In this document: positions 3,074 through 27,377 of the stretch, one piece after another
How positions within the stretch are numbered: the stretch's first letter is position 1
Layout: each line of letters starts with the position of its first letter
Source of the DNA: Bacteroidales bacterium
GTDB taxonomy: Bacteria; Bacteroidota; Bacteroidia; Bacteroidales; UBA12077
Reading direction: 5' to 3'
Length of the DNA: 64,000 nucleotides
Assembly: GCA_013138975.1 (NCBI GenBank)
Contig: WTBR01000050.1
Span: forward strand, 3,123 to 67,122
The notes under the pieces: generated by a model
Seen by the model: the letters and a program-made list of their open reading frames with translations, nothing else
Told to the model about the DNA's origin: nothing
Databases searched by the model: none
Translations under genes and position numbers: made by a program

Positions 3074-3142
3074 ATATAATCAATATTTGGTTTTATTTAT
3101 ATAGAAAGAAAAATGAATTAGAAAAATTACTGAAAAGAAATC

Positions 3143-16395: not shown

Positions 16396-17232
16396 TTATT
16401 TGGAATAATTAGTTTTAAAGTAAGTGCTTAACAACAAATATTTATTGACTCTAAAAAATAAATAGCTATAAAAATATAAATAAATCCGCTAAGCACTTAC
16501 TAAATGTCATTCTATAAAATAAAAGTAGATATATAATCATTTTACTGAAAATTATTCCTCTTCCAGAGTATAAGAGATTTCCTGACAAAACCAGCCCGCA
16601 TTATCCTAAATTTTTCTCCTTAATTTTCTTATTTCTTCCCTTAATGTTTTTAGCTTCTCCTCCTAAAAATTTACCAATCATCTGCCAAATATAAAAAGCT
16701 TATTCTGAACCTAAGTCTCCCTAATAAATATTGTATCCATCCAAAATATTTTTACTTTCATATAACTCTTTCCACTTCTTCATAATTTCAACAAACTCTT
16801 TAGTTTTGTCGACTTTAACATACGCAAAAAACCAATAAGAAAAATCTTTACAAGGTACGATTTAGAGATACTGAATGTCAAGCAAATAACGAAATATTAT
16901 TGACTATTTAGAATGATGCTTTTTTAACTAAACACTTATTAAACTATTGCTTCCAAAACTTAAACAAAATCAGAAAATAAGATCTTTAAATATCATAAAA
17001 CAGTCTTTTGCAATATTTTATTTATATCTTACCAGCCCACTAAAAAATAAATACATTTACAATTCAAATTACTTTATGCTTTTTAGAGATTTGATAATTA
17101 AATAAATATAGTGATTTTGTACGACAAGAAAAGTATCAAATTTGAAAATGAACAACTTAAATAAAGCTATTCAAAAGTATAGGAGAATTACAATAACTTC
17201 ATCAGTGAAAAATTCCATAATGCATTCCATAG

Positions 17233-18714: not shown

Positions 18715-18880
18715 GTAAAAACAAAACACTCAATACAAACAACCAGACTTTACTTGCCTAGTATTTTCCAAACTAAATTTGTGTGCCCCAATAATTATTA
18801 GAAGTCGAAGTATTTAGCATCTATATCATATAGTTTAAACAAAAAATAATTTTAAGTTATAGATTAGTATAAGCCAATAT

Positions 18881-18980
18881 TTTGTAAAGTAGAATATTAT
18901 TTTTACTTTCATGATCTCCTACCTTAAGAACGTACATGTTGGTTTGAAACGAAGTATTAATTAATTAATATTAAGTACGT
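18881..18980 (+). promoter_or_regulatory. repeated promoter plus structured leader, copy 1
   Basis: TTTG(18881)-N19-TACTTTC, then AAGAACGTACATG...TATTAATTAATTAATA...GTACGT. Confidence 0.7.
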
Positions 18981-18999
18981 ATATCTAAAATTTAAAATT

Positions 19000-19950
19000 A
19001 TGTTAAACTCAACTATTCTTGAAGTTATCATCGGATTGGTATTTTTATATCTGATTTTTAGCTTATTAGCAACATTTGTTAATGAAATTATCTCGACATT
19101 TTTTAAGCTTCGCGCTAATCATTTAAAAAGCGCCATCAAAAACATGTTGGATAATGATACTGAAGAAGGTGAAAAACTTTTCAAGGAATTTTATGATCAT
19201 CCATTAATTCAATCATTCGTAAAAAAGAAAGGCAAAGGATTTCCATCGTACCTTGAACCTAAAAAGTTTGCAAAAGTAATTATCGATATTTACGAGAAAA
19301 GTAAAGACGAGGACATCCAAAATGATATCAAATCAATTATCGAAAATCTACCAAAATCCAATTACCTGAAACATTTACTAGATAACTATAATAAAGGAGT
19401 ACAAAAAATTGAAGACCTTGAAAAAAATATCGAAGAATGGTTTAATAGTGTTATGGATCGAACATCGGGATGGTATAATAGAAATATTAAAAAACTAACA
19501 TTACTTACTGCATTAATTATTGCCATCGCATTTAATTTTGATACTATTCATGTTTATCAGCGTTTATCGAAAGATTCTAATTCACGTACAGAGTTGGTAT
19601 TACTTGCAGAAAACAACATTGATAAATATGCAGAATATGTTAAGAAAGATACTGTAAATAGGGAATCTGACACGCTTCTTTTAGTAGAAATGAACAAGTT
19701 AAAAACCAATATAAAAACTATTATTGATGAAGAAGTTAATTCCATTGAACAAATGGCAGGATTAGGATGGGAAAAAGGAGAGTGCAAAACAACACTCAAA
19801 AATTGTTGGAGTTCCGCTTTCTTAATTAAGCTTCTTGGTTGGGTTTTAACAGCAATGGCAATTTCGCTAGGTGCACCTTTCTGGTTCGATTTACTTGATA
19901 AAATAATGAAACTTAGAGGTACAGGTAAACAAGAAAAAATAACTACTTAA
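19000..19950 (+). CDS. conserved membrane protein of unknown function
   Basis: TM at both ends; FYDHPLI, PSYL, WFNSVMDRTSGWY, SLGAPFWFDLL. Confidence 0.8.
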   Translation: MLNSTILEVIIGLVFLYLIFSLLATFVNEIISTFFKLRANHLKSAIKNMLDNDTEEGEKLFKEFYDHPLIQSFVKKKGKGFPSYLEPKKFAKVIIDIYEKSKDEDIQNDIKSIIENLPKSNYLKHLLDNYNKGVQKIEDLEKNIEEWFNSVMDRTSGWYNRNIKKLTLLTALIIAIAFNFDTIHVYQRLSKDSNSRTELVLLAENNIDKYAEYVKKDTVNRESDTLLLVEMNKLKTNIKTIIDEEVNSIEQMAGLGWEKGECKTTLKNCWSSAFLIKLLGWVLTAMAISLGAPFWFDLLDKIMKLRGTGKQEKITT

Positions 19951-19952
19951 AA

Positions 19953-20162
19953 ATGATTAACGGTATCGTAATTTCAAAATTAATCGACAGATGTAAAGGA
20001 TCAAATGGCAATCCCTTAGATTCTTCTATTTATAAAACTGACGATAAAGTTGAAATAATCGATATTGTTAAAAGTGACGATTACAATAGTAATAAAGTAT
20101 AGTACAAACTCAATAACAGAAACTATGTTTGAAGTGGAGGAATTGAAGGAATAAAAACTTAA
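19953..20162 (+). pseudogene. SH3-like domain pseudogene with two Trp-to-stop changes
   Basis: MINGIV...DKVEIIDIVKSDDYNSNKV*YKLNNRNYV*SGGIEGIKT; TAG 20100-02 and TGA 20130-32 where VWYKL and YVWSGG are expected. Confidence 0.65.
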
Positions 20163-20597
20163 GATTCCTCCGCAAAACATAAAAATCAATAATTAGTTAT
20201 AATAAGGAGTTTTTATTACCAAAACAGCAGCCTGAGGTAGTTACTGAGCTCTGTTGAAGTATTCTGGATGGCTAACGATAATCATAAAAATAACTCAACA
20301 GACCACAAAGGAATTAATGAATATTAATTCCTTTTTTCTTTTTGCAATACTTTGTTAATCTTTGGCAAAGTTGAATTTCAAAAAAAGTCAAACTACTGAT
20401 AATTAGCCCTATGATTAAAATAAACGAACTTTGCCAAAGTTCTTAATTTCAAACTAATACAAAAATGTAACGAACTATTATTTTTAGGCATCCTTGTTTT
20501 AATTTCCTGTATTTTTCTAAATCAAAGCAAGCTACCATAATTCCTAAGGTTTATACAAAAAGAGACACTTAAACGCTAAATTATTACAAGTCAACAT

Positions 20598-20698
20598 TTT
20601 GAATCTAAAAATATTAGTTGTAATTTGTTTTCACTCTCCTAAGAACGTACATGCGATTTGAAAAAAAGGATATTAATTAAATTAATATTTAGGTACGT
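20598..20698 (+). promoter_or_regulatory. repeated promoter plus structured leader, copy 2
   Basis: TTTG(20598)-N19-TAATTTG, then AAGAACGTACATG...ATATTAAT-TAA-ATTAATAT...GTACGT. Confidence 0.65.
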
Positions 20699-20837
20699 GT
20701 ATTACCTAAAAATGTATTAAAATAGTAGAAAATGAATTTAGCCTTTAGTTAAACCTTATTTGCAAAGTAATATAATGAAAATTAGAGAAACCGGAAAAAA
20801 ATAAGGGACATTTAAATAAATAATAAAATGAATAAAC

Positions 20838-21686
20838 ATGCTTGATATTGTAAATTATAATGAACTGATAAAAGGAATTCCTGATAGTATTAAAGCGACT
20901 AAAGGGGATGATACTATTATTGCAATTCTAGATACGGGCTGCAACAATCATAGTTCAATTCAAGGACAAATTATACATACTTATGATGCAATAAATGAAA
21001 CAAGTGACATTCCAAACAATGACAAATCCTTAAGTGGACATGGGACATTCATTGCCGGATTAATTGCTGCAAAAGGTACCCGATCTGAAATAATTGGAAT
21101 TGCTCCCGAAGCTAAATTAATAATAGTGAAAGTTGCTGATTCTGATGATTCAGTTTTTAGCGAAAATGTACTAAAAGGATTAAATTGGTTGTCAAACACA
21201 TGTCCCGTTAAACCAAACATCATAAATATAAGTTTAGATTTTTATCCTGAAACGGTAAAAGATAGGTTTATTAACATATTTAAAAAATTTCTTGATGATG
21301 AGGTGTTTTGTTTTGCTGCTGCTCAAAACGACCTCAAACTTCAAAACAGTCCTTTTTACCCAGCTAATGAAATAAATGTTCATGCAGTAGGTGCATTAAA
21401 AAAACAAACATTATTAAATCCCGAATTTATTTCCATTAATAAAAAGGTTAATTATGTTGTCCCCAATATTGAATTTAAATCTACCAACAATTCTTTTATT
21501 AGTCCATTCAGAACAAATGAAGGATGTAGTTTTGCAACAGCAATAACATCAGCAAGCATGGCTCTTGTCATGTCATATTATAAAAAAAATGCAATTAATA
21601 TAAGCTTAAAAGATTTCTTCGACCAACAATTAAGAACCTTTAGCTCTGATATTTTTAATTACGAACTTGAAATTTATAAACTATGA
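20838..21686 (+). CDS. S8 subtilisin-like serine peptidase, catalytic domain only, no signal peptide
   Basis: ILDTG, GHGTFIAGLIAA, GCSFA. Confidence 0.88.
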   Translation: MLDIVNYNELIKGIPDSIKATKGDDTIIAILDTGCNNHSSIQGQIIHTYDAINETSDIPNNDKSLSGHGTFIAGLIAAKGTRSEIIGIAPEAKLIIVKVADSDDSVFSENVLKGLNWLSNTCPVKPNIINISLDFYPETVKDRFINIFKKFLDDEVFCFAAAQNDLKLQNSPFYPANEINVHAVGALKKQTLLNPEFISINKKVNYVVPNIEFKSTNNSFISPFRTNEGCSFATAITSASMALVMSYYKKNAINISLKDFFDQQLRTFSSDIFNYELEIYKL

Positions 21687-24046
21687 AAAAAATTACTTTT
21701 TTAATTTTAATTCTTCTGCAATCTTCATTTTTATTCAGTCAAAATGAATATTACGAATCTTTATTCCTTGTTAAATATCTAAAGGATAATAAAATGACAA
21801 TTAATAATTTTATTGAGGAACAAGAAAAATTCTGGACTGACTCTTTAAATAAAATTGAAAAGTATCCAATTTCAACAGAATTCCTACAATTAAACGAATC
21901 TGATAAAAATCAGAAAAAAATTGAATTACAAAATAATAAAGTTAAAGTTGATTCAATCCGTAATGAAATTACGGCTCAAAAACGTGATGCTTTATTAAAA
22001 ATAATTGTTAAGTACTTTGGAGAATGCACTGAAAATGCCAATAGTATAAACATGGCTTTTCAAGCAAATCCTTTTTTTGCTAATTTTACATATTCTGGAA
22101 GCACAAAGGGTTTTAAATATCAGGCGACAGAAAAAACACTTGATTTCGGTTCAATAAGTAGTATTAGTAGCGGCATTTCCGATCTCGATGTTACGGCTAT
22201 TGCTGACGGCTTAGCACAATTCATGATTTCGAGAGCCAAGGATGAAATAAGCGTTGCATTTATTCAAAGATTTAAAAATCAACTAGAAAAATATCCTGAG
22301 TTACAGGTATTATTCCCCGAAACATCTGATCTTTTAATAAACATTCTAGCATACGAATATACAATTGTGCTTCCAACTCTTCAGAAATCATTCGAGGAAG
22401 ATTTAAGTAACATGTTTAATAATGTTGAGAATATTTTCGAACTCCCCGATTATAAAAAAGTTTTAACTGATTTCCCTGAGGTTGGATTAATAATTCGGTC
22501 AATGTATGCAATTGCTAAACTTGAAGATGGAATGCATCCTGCAGATATTCTAGATACATTAACAAAATTAGAGGATTGGGATAACAATAATTTAAGTGTT
22601 GAGTTACTAAACCTAAAAGCTGTGCTTGATTTAGGAAATCTTTTTTCAAATAGTTTGAGGTTTGATGAAGAAGCATCTACTCTTTTGTCAAGAGATAATT
22701 TTACTTATTTTCAAACTTCAGATTCAATGTATAAATCGAAAGACAATGATACAATTATACTATCAAGATACCATGAGCCAACGTGGGTTACAGATCAACA
22801 TTTTAATTTAATTACGCAAAATGAAATTACTTTTAAAATTTTCCTTGGTCTTATATATCAAAATAGTAAAAATAAGTCCATTGCTTTTGTAATTAATAAT
22901 GAAACCAAAAATGATACTATAAAATTTTATGAGCAACTGGGAAAACATGTCGAAGATTCTTACTTTTTAAGAAGTCAATTTTATAAATTTTTACAAATAA
23001 GCTATAATATTGAGGAACAACTAACAAGAATAAATAAATTAAACGATACCGGTAAAAAACCAACTAACGATGATTATTATAATTATGTAAATGTATCACT
23101 AGATGTTGTGGAATATGGATCTGAAGTAATTAAATATTTTGCAAAAGATAACTCTGAATTTAAGATTATAAATTCTAACAAATATATTTCTTTATCAAGA
23201 GATATTAATGAATTTTATAAAGCAAGTTATAGCAAGGACTATACACCAATGGTACTTTATGGCACAAAAGTTATAGAAGGAATATATGAGTTATATGCAG
23301 CAGGAACAATCAAAAAAGAACTTGAAAGCAATCCTGGTAAACTGAAAAAATTTAATGAACTATCCGTTTATGATAAAAGCTATCAAAAGAAAATAAATAA
23401 ACAAAGCGAACTACCTAAGGCTATTTCAACCATATCACAGTATGGTACTTTTATGGCTCAAATAGCCCAAGCCGATTCTGGAGCTCAAGTAAATGATATT
23501 ATCGAAACTTTTGCACTGCCAGCAGGGAGTTCAAGTTTAAAAAAATACCAACAAAACAATTGGGCTATAAATTCATACCTCGGTTATTCTTATAAGTCCG
23601 ATTTCAGTAATGATAATATCTGGAAATTGTATGCTCCTATTGGTATTTCTTACACACCTGTTTCTGGAGGGAAATACGGCTCTTTAAGCATATTTGCAAG
23701 TTTAATTGATATTGGTGCTATTATAGATTATCGCATACATTCCGATAACGATACTATAATTGCTATTAACGGTACCGACACAACCACTACAATAAACAAA
23801 AATGTTGAATACAGCAATAAAATTCAACTTGGAAATATTCTATCGCCTGGCTGCTACATAGTGTACGGATTTGGTGGAAATATTCCTCTTGCTCTTGGTG
23901 TAGGTGCTCAGTATGGTCCAGCTTTAACAAAAATTAATGCCGATAGAAATGTTATCAAAGAATCCAAATGGATGTTCAATGTATCATTAACTGTTGATAT
24001 TCCAATTATAAACATTCATCCGGGAAAAAGAAAGCGTATTAAATAA
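21683..24046 (+). CDS. large secreted hypothetical protein
   Basis: Signal peptide; 4-nt overlap with the S8 gene; ADGLAQFMISRAKDEISVAF helical core and beta-rich C-terminus. Confidence 0.8.
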   Translation: MKKITFLILILLQSSFLFSQNEYYESLFLVKYLKDNKMTINNFIEEQEKFWTDSLNKIEKYPISTEFLQLNESDKNQKKIELQNNKVKVDSIRNEITAQKRDALLKIIVKYFGECTENANSINMAFQANPFFANFTYSGSTKGFKYQATEKTLDFGSISSISSGISDLDVTAIADGLAQFMISRAKDEISVAFIQRFKNQLEKYPELQVLFPETSDLLINILAYEYTIVLPTLQKSFEEDLSNMFNNVENIFELPDYKKVLTDFPEVGLIIRSMYAIAKLEDGMHPADILDTLTKLEDWDNNNLSVELLNLKAVLDLGNLFSNSLRFDEEASTLLSRDNFTYFQTSDSMYKSKDNDTIILSRYHEPTWVTDQHFNLITQNEITFKIFLGLIYQNSKNKSIAFVINNETKNDTIKFYEQLGKHVEDSYFLRSQFYKFLQISYNIEEQLTRINKLNDTGKKPTNDDYYNYVNVSLDVVEYGSEVIKYFAKDNSEFKIINSNKYISLSRDINEFYKASYSKDYTPMVLYGTKVIEGIYELYAAGTIKKELESNPGKLKKFNELSVYDKSYQKKINKQSELPKAISTISQYGTFMAQIAQADSGAQVNDIIETFALPAGSSSLKKYQQNNWAINSYLGYSYKSDFSNDNIWKLYAPIGISYTPVSGGKYGSLSIFASLIDIGAIIDYRIHSDNDTIIAINGTDTTTTINKNVEYSNKIQLGNILSPGCYIVYGFGGNIPLALGVGAQYGPALTKINADRNVIKESKWMFNVSLTVDIPIINIHPGKRKRIK

Positions 24047-24069
24047 CTATTAATCAACAAAGTCCACAT

Positions 24070-24099
24070 ATGGCGTAGCTTGATGCTACGCCATTTTTT
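24070..24099 (+). terminator. intrinsic terminator
   Basis: ATGGCGTAGC-TTGAT-GCTACGCCAT-TTTTT. Confidence 0.9.
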
Positions 24100-24192
24100 A
24101 TTCTTTTCTCACTAAATCTATATGTTTAGTCGTCTTATCTAATATATAAACAAAAAGAAACTGTTAATTTCTATATTACTGCACCACAATTT

Positions 24193-24296
24193 TTTGTAAT
24201 TCAAAATATTTTATCTACTTTCATGCCTTACTACATTAAGGAACGTACATGTTAGTTTGAAACGAAGTATTAATTTAATTTTAATACAATGTACGT
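24193..24296 (+). promoter_or_regulatory. repeated promoter plus structured leader, copy 3 (overlaps the start codon)
   Basis: TTTG(24193)-N19-TACTTTC, then GAACGTACAT...GTATTAA-N7-TTAATAC...ATGTACGT. Confidence 0.7.
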
Positions 24297-24699
24297 GATT
24301 ATTAAAAAAGTGCCTTTAATTATTCTTTTGATTAGTATAACACTAATCTCCTATGCTCAGGAAACACTTGAAGTACGGCTTGTTTCTATTTCTAATATTT
24401 CCAACAATCATGTAGGAAATGAATGGTCGCATGACGTTACAGTTAATGAAACGAAACTCACAAAATACAAAAGCCTAAGCTTTAAACTTTCCGAAACCAA
24501 AACACTAAACATAACAGTAAACTGCACTGAATTCGACGAGAAATACCCCGATTACGGTAGCAACACCAAAATAATAGACCTAAGTAAAATAGATTTAAGC
24601 AATGAATATCTTTTTGCCATTGAAGTAACTGTAACTGAAAACGGTGGCCGTTACAAAGGCAATAAAGCAAAATGGAAATATAGTTTTAGAATAAAATAG
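24289..24699 (+). CDS. secreted hypothetical protein
   Basis: Signal peptide ending SYAQ; beta-rich; NNHVGNEWS motif. Confidence 0.7.
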   Translation: MYVIIKKVPLIILLISITLISYAQETLEVRLVSISNISNNHVGNEWSHDVTVNETKLTKYKSLSFKLSETKTLNITVNCTEFDEKYPDYGSNTKIIDLSKIDLSNEYLFAIEVTVTENGGRYKGNKAKWKYSFRIK

Positions 24700-24723: not shown

Positions 24724-25299
24724 ATGTATTTATTTTTTGACACAGAAACAACAGGATTACCTAGAAACTATAAAGCTCCTGCAAGCGATACTAATAATTG
24801 GCCAAGAATGGTGCAAATTGCATGGAGACTGAATGATGAAAAAGGAAATGAGCTGGATGCGCAAAGTTTAATTATTAAACCAGAGGGTTATATAATTCCC
24901 CAGGAAGCTTCAAATGTACACCGAATAACAACTGAAAGAGCAAATAAAGAAGGCGTTGATCTTGAAACAGTTTTGGAGTCTTTTTCTCAATTAATTAATA
25001 AATCCAAATATCTTGTGGCACACAACATAAGCTTTGACGAGAAAATTATTGGAGCAGAATTCTTTCGAAAAAAGCTTACAACTAATCTTGATAAATTAAA
25101 AAGAATTTGCACCATGCATTCATCTACTGATTTCTGTAAAATACCTGGAAATTATGGTTATAAATGGCCAAAATTACAAGAATTGCACTACAAACTTTTT
25201 GGAGAAGAATTTGAAGAAGCTCATGATGCTGCCGCTGACATTGATGCTACTGTAAAATGTTTTTGGAAACTTAAGGAATTAAATATTATTAAAAACTAA
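24724..25299 (+). CDS. DEDDh 3'-5' exonuclease (DnaQ-like)
   Basis: FFDTETTGLP, AHNISFD, AHDAAADI. Confidence 0.93.
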   Translation: MYLFFDTETTGLPRNYKAPASDTNNWPRMVQIAWRLNDEKGNELDAQSLIIKPEGYIIPQEASNVHRITTERANKEGVDLETVLESFSQLINKSKYLVAHNISFDEKIIGAEFFRKKLTTNLDKLKRICTMHSSTDFCKIPGNYGYKWPKLQELHYKLFGEEFEEAHDAAADIDATVKCFWKLKELNIIKN

Positions 25300-27100: not shown

Positions 27101-27377
27101 AAATAAAATAACTACACCTACCCCTGTTCTGTGTAGTTTTCTATCTTCTATAGCTTAAATCAATTTAAATATAAACTCACCCATCCTTATAACATCTTCA
27201 ATTTCATTAATCGTTTTTTTCCTGTCTGCTTTGCCATATTAATTTGTTTTAGTATTTTCATGCCATAATAAACGCCAAAATGATATAACTAGTTGTAAAT
27301 TAATTTGATATAAGTTCAGTGTCTTTTTCAACTTTGTTGTTCTATAAAAATAAACCTTAAATTTTTAAGCCTAAAAA

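Follow-up and report, generated by a model that had tools for sequence, protein, structure and literature searches.

The stretch of DNA analysed here, which we call the window, comprises 64 000 nucleotides from a Bacteroidales bacterium assembly (GCA_013138975.1; 6.8 Mb, 31% GC, 221 contigs), in which it occupies positions 3123–67122 of contig C76 (WTBR01000050.1). The window contains three copies, named E1, E2 and E3, of a repeated element in which a promoter-like sequence is followed by a leader with an outer and an inner inverted repeat, and each copy faces different accessory genes. These copies had been described in a sequence-only reading of the window, and the sequence agrees with that description at all three positions. 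The location of each copy stands, but the conserved block is slightly larger than was described, spanning from ~20 nt upstream of the TTTG to GTATT(G/A)C and a run of A past the 3′ arm of the outer repeat. The repeat is confirmed as a genuine and uncatalogued element that is confined to one uncultured genus of marine-sediment Bacteroidales.

The three copies in the window

Copies of the element were located with a covariance model built from five copies and rebuilt from 13, the scores of the matches being 83–130 bits. E1 lies at 18878–18987 on the forward strand (C76:22000–22109, 104–111 bits). Its promoter-like part consists of TTTG at 18881–18884, a spacer of 19 nt and TACTTTCA at 18904–18911, and its leader core (18923–18987) includes ACGTACAT at 18930–18937, TTTGAAAC at 18943–18950 and the inner palindrome TATTAATTAATTAATA at 18955–18970. 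The outer stem pairs ACGTAC (18930–18935) with GTACGT (18975–18980). E2, on the same strand at 20595–20705 (C76:23717–23827, 83–93 bits), has TTTG at 20598, TAATTTGT at 20621–20628, ACGTACAT at 20645–20652 and GTACGT at 20693–20698, with the inner hairpin ATATTAAT-TAA-ATTAATAT at 20670–20688. This copy is the most divergent type within the source genome and is nearest to a copy from another species (L020). E3, also on the forward strand at 24190–24303 (C76:27312–27425, 97–104 bits), has TTTG at 24193 and TACTTTCA at 24216–24223, followed by an outer stem of ACGTACAT (24243–24250) and ATGTACGT (24289–24296) that encloses the inner hairpin GTATTAA-N7-TTAATAC (24267–24287). The 3′ arm ATGTACGT is also the beginning of an open reading frame (ORF; 24289–24699), the start codon of which, at 24289, lies inside the arm, as had been pointed out.

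The promoter geometry is identical in the three copies, with TTTG, exactly 19 nt and TA(C/A)TTT(C/G). Some 20 nt further on each copy has (A/G)AGAACGTACATG, which is followed by TTTGAAA, the AT-rich inner hairpin and finally GTACGT. Identity among the three blocks is 78% over ~150 nt. The window contains three exact occurrences of the 11-mer GAACGTACATG where 0.35 would be expected, a number reached in none of 100 shuffles. The inner hairpins do pair as the sequence-only reading had claimed, but they do not co-vary freely; the stem is mostly a constant TATTAAT/ATTAATA and it is the loop that differs.

Two further sites in the window, 16741–16775 and 27230–27261, carry the promoter-like sequences AATATTTTTACTTTCAT and TTTG-N20-TATTTTCAT, which are akin to the promoter half of the element and come without the leader core. 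It may be that the promoter half is no more than the strong-promoter consensus of this organism.

Genes facing the element

All of the ~25 unique copies identified in this study are oriented towards a downstream ORF, which starts 0–130 nt past the 3′ arm. In the window the gene upstream of E1 encodes a histidine kinase, and E1 itself faces a gene on the forward strand (19000–19950, ATG at 19000) for a 316-residue membrane protein with a hydrophobic N-terminus, for which a weak CorA-like match was the only one found. In two congeners the element is followed by an EEP nuclease gene and then by a homolog of this protein. E2 faces an S8 subtilase gene (20838–21686, forward strand; Pfam Peptidase_S8, 7e-25; weak PADLOC subtilase/IetS match), which is overlapped by a gene on the same strand for a 787-residue exported protein with a signal peptide (21683–24046). 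This unit ends, just upstream of E3, in a forward-strand intrinsic terminator (24070–24104) with a 10 bp stem containing six GC pairs, followed by TTTTTATT. Terminators also occur upstream of the copies in a second array described below, and the units are thus separated from one another. Behind E3 lie two forward-strand genes, one for a 136-residue exported β-sandwich protein (24289–24699) and one for a DEDDh/RNase_T exonuclease (24724–25299).

The 136-residue family is the commonest cargo, being found behind the element in five genomes and two metagenome contigs. In this family the ATG forms part of the 3′ arm, and the conserved tail of the element codes for the N-terminus MY(V/G)xCKK. The predicted structure consists of a signal peptide and an eight-stranded β-sandwich (pLDDT 79.6); structure comparison gave a generic fold with a weak C2-like likeness (best TM 0.45). 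Elsewhere the cargo comprises a PLD/NgoFVII-like nuclease, a 617-residue protein that has no Pfam or PADLOC match and whose C-terminus appears PD-(D/E)xK-like by eye, an amidohydrolase (a weak Amidohydro_2 match under the Pfam cut-off), a weakly matched HNH endonuclease together with an RNase_T-BRCT exonuclease, EEP nucleases of two families, an LpxR-like outer-membrane protein and a PAS histidine kinase. This set is heterogeneous and does not form a functionally coherent group, although many of its members are nucleases of the kind seen in defence islands. The claim that one leader is shared by unrelated accessory genes is borne out by these assignments, the shared unit being a promoter-like segment with a leader of about 70 nt or more.

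Distribution of the element

The source genome contains seven solid copies. In addition to the three in the window, the covariance model matched at C84:46941, C8:486, C8:4099 and C92:58590. Contig C8 overlaps the reverse complement of C92 over 110 nt with 100% identity, so the three copies on these two contigs form a second tandem array; the genome thus holds two tandem arrays of three and one singleton. Within the genus the element was found in 12 of 37 species, at one to seven copies each, with the 11 species other than the source holding one to three. A metagenome collection contributed three more copies.

Outside the genus the element was not recovered. The covariance model gave no match in 19 genomes that belong to the family's other genera, and a core-only model run against 400 genomes of the order gave two marginal matches at E ≃ 0.005, which is near the chance expectation. 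When 185 579 species genomes were scanned for the exact pattern, all of those returned were uncultured 'Bacteroidales bacterium' metagenome-assembled genomes. Three IMG/VR contigs contain the sequence pattern, none of which was accepted by the covariance model. The DNA runs that contain the window are marine-sediment and sediment metagenomes.

The element had not been recognized as a named riboswitch, and the search against Rfam 15 agrees with this: there were no matches at gathering thresholds anywhere in the window, and the five chance-level matches obtained at E ≤ 5 over 18800–24400 all avoid the element cores. Nor is it the end of a miniature inverted-repeat transposable element (MITE), a possibility that had been raised, as its orientation towards the gene is fixed, it has no terminal inverted repeats and its 5′ boundary is promoter-like. 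When the conserved 10-mer was sought as a stand-alone intergenic site, 26 occurrences were found in the genome against ~19 expected; six of the 26 are the elements themselves, and stand-alone sites are therefore at chance level.

Modularity, arrays and a common hot spot

The similarity between copies follows the genome and not the cargo. Copies in the source genome that face different cargo are 76–84% identical, whereas copies that face the same cargo in different genomes are 54–73% identical; the copies L023 and L019, which differ in both cargo and species, are nevertheless 88% identical. The coding tail of the 136-residue signal peptide persists as a relic in front of unrelated cargo, and in one case (L031) this relic reads as the vestige of something like a signal peptide, located upstream of the true one. 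The homology past the 3′ arm ends at variable points, 20–48 nt beyond it. An 886 nt contig (X3) that comes from another sediment metagenome matches the E2 core exactly over 20631–20694 (64 nt) and then diverges, which indicates that the same type of element precedes other sequence in another population. A search for orthologs or empty sites by way of the upstream histidine kinase returned paralogs only.

In four congeners (L029, L031, L032 and L034) the element lies 150–250 nt past the kbl terminator of a conserved acpS/acyl-CoA synthetase/ACP/kbl (SPT-like) cluster, and the cargo at this hot spot is different in each of the four species. The same site in the source genome (C144, ~89000) has no element. 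The second array, which occupies the whole of C8 and 58590–59770 of C92 (reverse strand), begins with an element followed by the PLD nuclease gene, a gene for a 232-residue protein and a further element; it continues with a paralog of the 232-residue gene that is broken by a stop, another element, the gene for the 617-residue protein and the amidohydrolase gene. Three decaying paralogs of the 232-residue gene are present in this array. The repeat itself had been correctly noticed in the sequence-only reading, while the tandem arrays, the hot spot and the way in which similarity tracks the genome had been missed.

Such an arrangement raises the question of a site-specific cassette system of the integron attC or rAID-1 type, in which the palindrome would be read by a recombinase whose gene lies at another genomic location. 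Direct tandem arrays between unrelated genes, a palindrome that is nested and imperfect and has a variable loop, and a hot spot common to congeners would all fit, and intergenic repeats reminiscent of integrons are on record in Bacteroidales as rAID-1 (bioRxiv 10.1101/471110). However, none of the 12 tyrosine recombinase (PF00589) matches in the genome is on the four element contigs (C76, C8, C92 and C84), the RYYYAAC/GTTRRRY cores are absent, each copy has its own promoter and the variable end points of the downstream homology do not define a single crossover point. Joined or excised forms of the element were also absent from the contigs of four metagenome runs, which is weak evidence as contigs drop rare variants. 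We consider a cassette system of this kind very improbable.

A second explanation dispenses with both a recombinase and dedicated regulation. The element would then be the promoter, 5′ untranslated region and first codons of the 136-residue gene, spread by recombination and kept similar by gene conversion; the palindromes would be incidental and the element would act as a joint for modular shuffling, for which the PeSL cassettes of phages provide a precedent (PMC2839356). The match of the element tail to the N-terminal coding sequence of the 136-residue protein, the relics with their scattered end points, the arrays, the hot spot with its changing cargo, the independence of similarity from cargo and the weak covariation reported below are all consistent with this view. 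It does not account for blocks that are invariant in 12 species within an element that is otherwise 55–70% identical, and such strongly uneven conservation argues for purifying selection on specific positions. Pairing is also retained even though the copies differ in the length of the loop and at the ends of the stem, the folding z-scores of the cores are consistently negative and insertions are tolerated at one position only. In our view this explanation is unlikely, and the data are most consistent with a real, selected promoter-plus-leader module common to unrelated accessory genes, an interpretation that we hold with high confidence.

Anatomy of the leader

The consensus of the element begins with TTTG-N19-TAnTTT, after which come ~12–20 nt ending in CTTACC, then (C)TTAAG and AACGTACAT, the 5′ arm of the outer stem. 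The middle consists of ~22 unpaired nucleotides containing (T/C)G-AAA-n-G(G/A)AG, followed by TATTAAT, a loop of 2–7 nt and ATTAATA. After a further 2–3 nt, (AT)GTACGT forms the 3′ arm of the outer stem and is followed by GTATTGC(A)n. Invariant columns are concentrated in the 5′ arm, the AAA and the inner stem. The length of the inner loop and the distance between the outer arms (39–44 nt) vary even within one genome. In other genomes the internal segment reads AAAAGGAG, a strong Shine–Dalgarno (SD)-like word.

Seven copies from other genomes have an additional GC-rich hairpin directly 5′ of (TT)AAGAACGTACAT, which ends 2–4 nt before this 12-mer. The insertion point is exactly the same in all of the carriers (L013/L050, L024, L025, L026, L042 and L048), while the stems differ (CTGC/GCAG, CCTGCC/GGCAGG, AACCTATT/AATAGGTT and ACTTGCC/GGCAAGT). 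Among the window copies only E3 shows pairing at this site, and the pairing is weak. Being stable in just ~7 of 22 copies, the additional hairpin was rejected as a general property of the leader; it is an optional helix or else a small insert resembling a repetitive extragenic palindrome (REP) with a preferred target.

Several other features were considered for the leader and set aside. A conserved additional helix in the 22 nt internal region was not supported, the ACTC/GAGT and TTTCG/CGAAA pairings seen in some copies being inconsistent across the set. Short ORFs that start from ACATG or from the 3′ arm vary in both length and sequence, which is not what is expected of a leader peptide. An ECF-type or σ70 promoter within the core is not compatible with the spacings observed, and a σ70 scan gave 34 sites where 36 were expected. 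The SOS boxes of Bacteroidetes LexA-like repressors (GGA-N5-TCC as well as CTAA-N5-TTAG) are absent and would be incompatible with the variable spacer. A possible likeness of GAACGTACAT to the consensus of the inverted repeats of Mpi-type invertible promoters was dropped, as the arms of the element are only 39–44 bp apart.

Possible mechanism

In the mechanism that we favour, the module would comprise a Bacteroidota-type housekeeping promoter, TTTG-N19-TAnTTT, joined to a ~70 nt 5′ leader and would drive separate transcription units of unrelated accessory genes. With transcription starting at this putative promoter, the leader would be part of the message and may fold in vivo into the outer and the inner hairpin. 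In the founding arrangement, which would be that of the 136-residue class, the hairpin would hold the start codon with an SD-like AAGGAG adjoining, giving an expression level that is low by default and perhaps a more stable message as well. Expression would be raised when the weak AU-rich outer stem opens or a trans-acting factor binds. The identity of 75–85% between copies within a genome suggests that they also act as joints for homologous recombination, at which cargo could be duplicated, swapped and stacked into arrays.

The placement of the AUG in the outer stem, the position of the SD-like word beside the inner hairpin and the maintenance of this geometry while the spacing varies favour an RNA hairpin. 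Two of the inner-stem pairs switch from T-A to G-C, and four copies gain a G-C pair that lengthens the inner stem. When compared with dinucleotide shuffles the cores have a mean folding z-score of −1.8, which is negative in 19 of 20 cases. Together with the variable loop and arm spacing, the T-A to G-C switches and the negative z-scores suggest a hairpin rather than a fixed duplex site. In an alignment fitted to the covariance model none of 500 shuffles was as good as the observed pairing, but this alignment is biased towards the structure and includes doubtful members.

A considerable number of observations weigh against this mechanism. In an alignment of 20 solid cores made with MAFFT, which is not fitted to the structure, 90.0% of the cells are paired compared with 88.7% in shuffles, and compensatory change is limited to two pairs (three cells), a result equalled by 208 of 500 shuffles. 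The covariation that had been proposed as a check on the leader is thus strong in the model-fitted alignment and weak in the unbiased one. Departures of the G·U type (15) do not significantly exceed those of the A·C type (9), so the strand on which the element acts cannot be called from them. At 37 °C the full-length leaders have z-scores of +0.2 to −0.7 and are no more stable than their shuffles. The SD-like motif has decayed to GAAG or AAGG in the source genome. The 5′ arm of the outer stem is 90–100% conserved and its pairing partner only 60–95%, and the combination of a near-invariant 12-mer, AAGAACGTACAT, with a variable 3′ arm is suggestive of sequence-specific recognition rather than mere pairing. 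A search for RNA runs of the organism found the locus in DNA metagenomes only; two metatranscriptomes contain relatives of the 3′ half of the 316-residue gene (90–95%) and none over the element.

Translational sequestration, which had been suggested, along with protein binding, for the shared leader, is plausible for the 136-residue class, in which the 3′ strand of the outer stem contains the start codon. Direct sequestration does not hold as a general mechanism, as many copies have their start codon further downstream, at distances of up to 130 nt. Our preference for an RNA hairpin is accordingly a tentative one, and we stop short of calling it probable.

The uneven conservation of the two arms can also be explained if the core is read at the level of DNA or of the elongation complex, with AAGAACGTACAT serving as the operator of a genus-specific repressor or as a pause-and-recruitment site of the ops/JUMPStart kind. 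In the latter variant a NusG-type or other elongation factor could load on RNA polymerase and so permit transcription through AT-rich acquired genes. The scarcity of true covariation is in keeping with a DNA-level role, as is the homogeneity of the elements within each genome whatever their cargo, which gives the appearance of co-evolution with one host factor. Elemental pauses follow the pattern G−10/Y−1/G+1; AAGAACGTACAT provides G at −10 and T at −1, and about half of the copies also have G at +1, although a match to this pattern is low in information. The seven copies with a variable GC-rich hairpin 2–4 nt before the 12-mer are suggestive in this respect, but two thirds of the copies have no such hairpin or a negligible one. 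There is also a precedent in Bacteroides, where the leaders of capsular polysaccharide operons contain opsX pause sites, with pause hairpins reaching to −12 to −9, that are recognized by the UpxY paralogs of NusG (PMC11685472). NusG paralogs are, however, encoded in nearly all of the 37 genomes whether or not the element is present, none adjoins an element, and the regions upstream of those in the source genome contain no element-like sequence. The chance-level frequency of stand-alone 10-mers is a further difficulty, and the variable spacing of both palindromes disfavours the operator of a dimeric helix-turn-helix protein; Bacteroidetes LexA-like repressors lose binding when the length of the spacer is changed (PMC8565304). 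A site read in this way is, in our opinion, less likely than an RNA hairpin and yet a serious competitor.

A broader proposal sees in the leader one common sensor or recruitment element, which would place a freely exchangeable set of acquired genes for nucleases, proteases and exported proteins under a single signal. Candidates for its nature are a small riboswitch-like RNA, an ops-like site at which an elongation factor loads and an SD-containing start region that only specialized ribosomes read, in a phylum in which SD is normally ignored. The element would double as a recombinase-free joint at which new genes enter the regulon. We regard this proposal as rather doubtful.

Comparison with known systems

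By its layout the element appears to be nearest to the PeSL cassettes and the rAID-1 repeats, and by its possible function nearest to translational hairpin leaders or ops. The hallmarks by which each known family could be judged are lacking, namely a recombinase, attC cores, a terminator stem-loop, an Rfam model and a dedicated NusG paralog.

PeSL cassettes are modules of a promoter and a stem-loop that mediate shuffling in the hyperplastic regions of T4-type phages (Arbiol et al., 2010; PMC2839356). They share with the element a short repeated promoter and stem-loop between unrelated non-essential genes, the copies of which are recombination joints. They differ in belonging to phage genomes, in having σ70 promoters and in that the stem-loop is a terminator. 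The element, in contrast, is on a Bacteroidales chromosome, its hairpin lies downstream of the promoter in the leader and has no U-tract, and it has a conserved 22 nt internal loop and sometimes a start codon within the hairpin.

The rAID-1 arrays (Ross et al., bioRxiv 10.1101/471110) come from the same order and have an integron-like layout in which unrelated accessory genes each follow a conserved intergenic repeat. An intergenic repeat before each array gene is indeed what is found in the two arrays of three described here. The rAID-1 arrays are headed by a recombinase of the XerD family and their cargo consists of homologs of immunity genes, whereas the contigs that carry the element in the source genome are recombinase-free, its cargo consists of nucleases, peptidases and exported proteins and its range is one sediment genus. 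No immunity families are present among the Pfam and PADLOC matches of the cargo, several cargo proteins having no match at all.

Like the element, the attC sites of integrons and CALINs are imperfect palindromes with a variable central loop that lie between unrelated genes in direct arrays. The element has no integrase and no R′/R′′ core; its arms are ACGTAC(AT)/(AT)GTACGT and it has a large and asymmetric 5′ bulge that is conserved. A promoter is present in each unit, and the homology end points vary.

The translational hairpin leaders include those with the SD–hairpin–AUG spacing of phage T4 gene 38/25 and the fourU and ROSE RNA thermometers. In the 136-residue class of the element AAGGAG, a 7 bp hairpin and the AUG follow one another in a similar succession, with the AUG taking part in the weak, AU-rich pairing of the outer stem. 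Bacteroidota do not generally rely on SD pairing. The element departs from these leaders in the decay of the SD-like motif in the source genome and in the many copies in which the true start is far downstream.

With ops/JUMPStart and opsX, which are read by RfaH and UpxY, respectively (PMC11685472), the element has in common a short near-invariant leader sequence in front of unrelated and often acquired operons, a hairpin that sometimes precedes it and a sequence that is specific to the host genome. It differs in that no dedicated NusG paralog tracks the element and in being far larger (~70 nt with nested palindromes).

If the module is truly a plug-in unit, this lineage would have a way to bring newly acquired and potentially toxic genes under one control circuit, and to reshuffle them, with no integrase involved, and the element would be the chromosomal Bacteroidales counterpart of the PeSL cassettes of phages and of the rAID-1 repeats. 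At ~110 nt it would also be a compact candidate part for controlled expression in Bacteroidota, although its practical weight is limited by its restriction to one uncultured sediment genus.

A high-copy repeat upstream of E2

A short repeat of very high copy number lies at 20345–20485, between the cargo of E1 and E2. In the source sample its word depth in Logan is ~430–700 compared with ~12 in the flanking sequence. The repeat is abundant in other sediment runs as well, and the contigs of all runs end there. It looks like a MITE or a REP.

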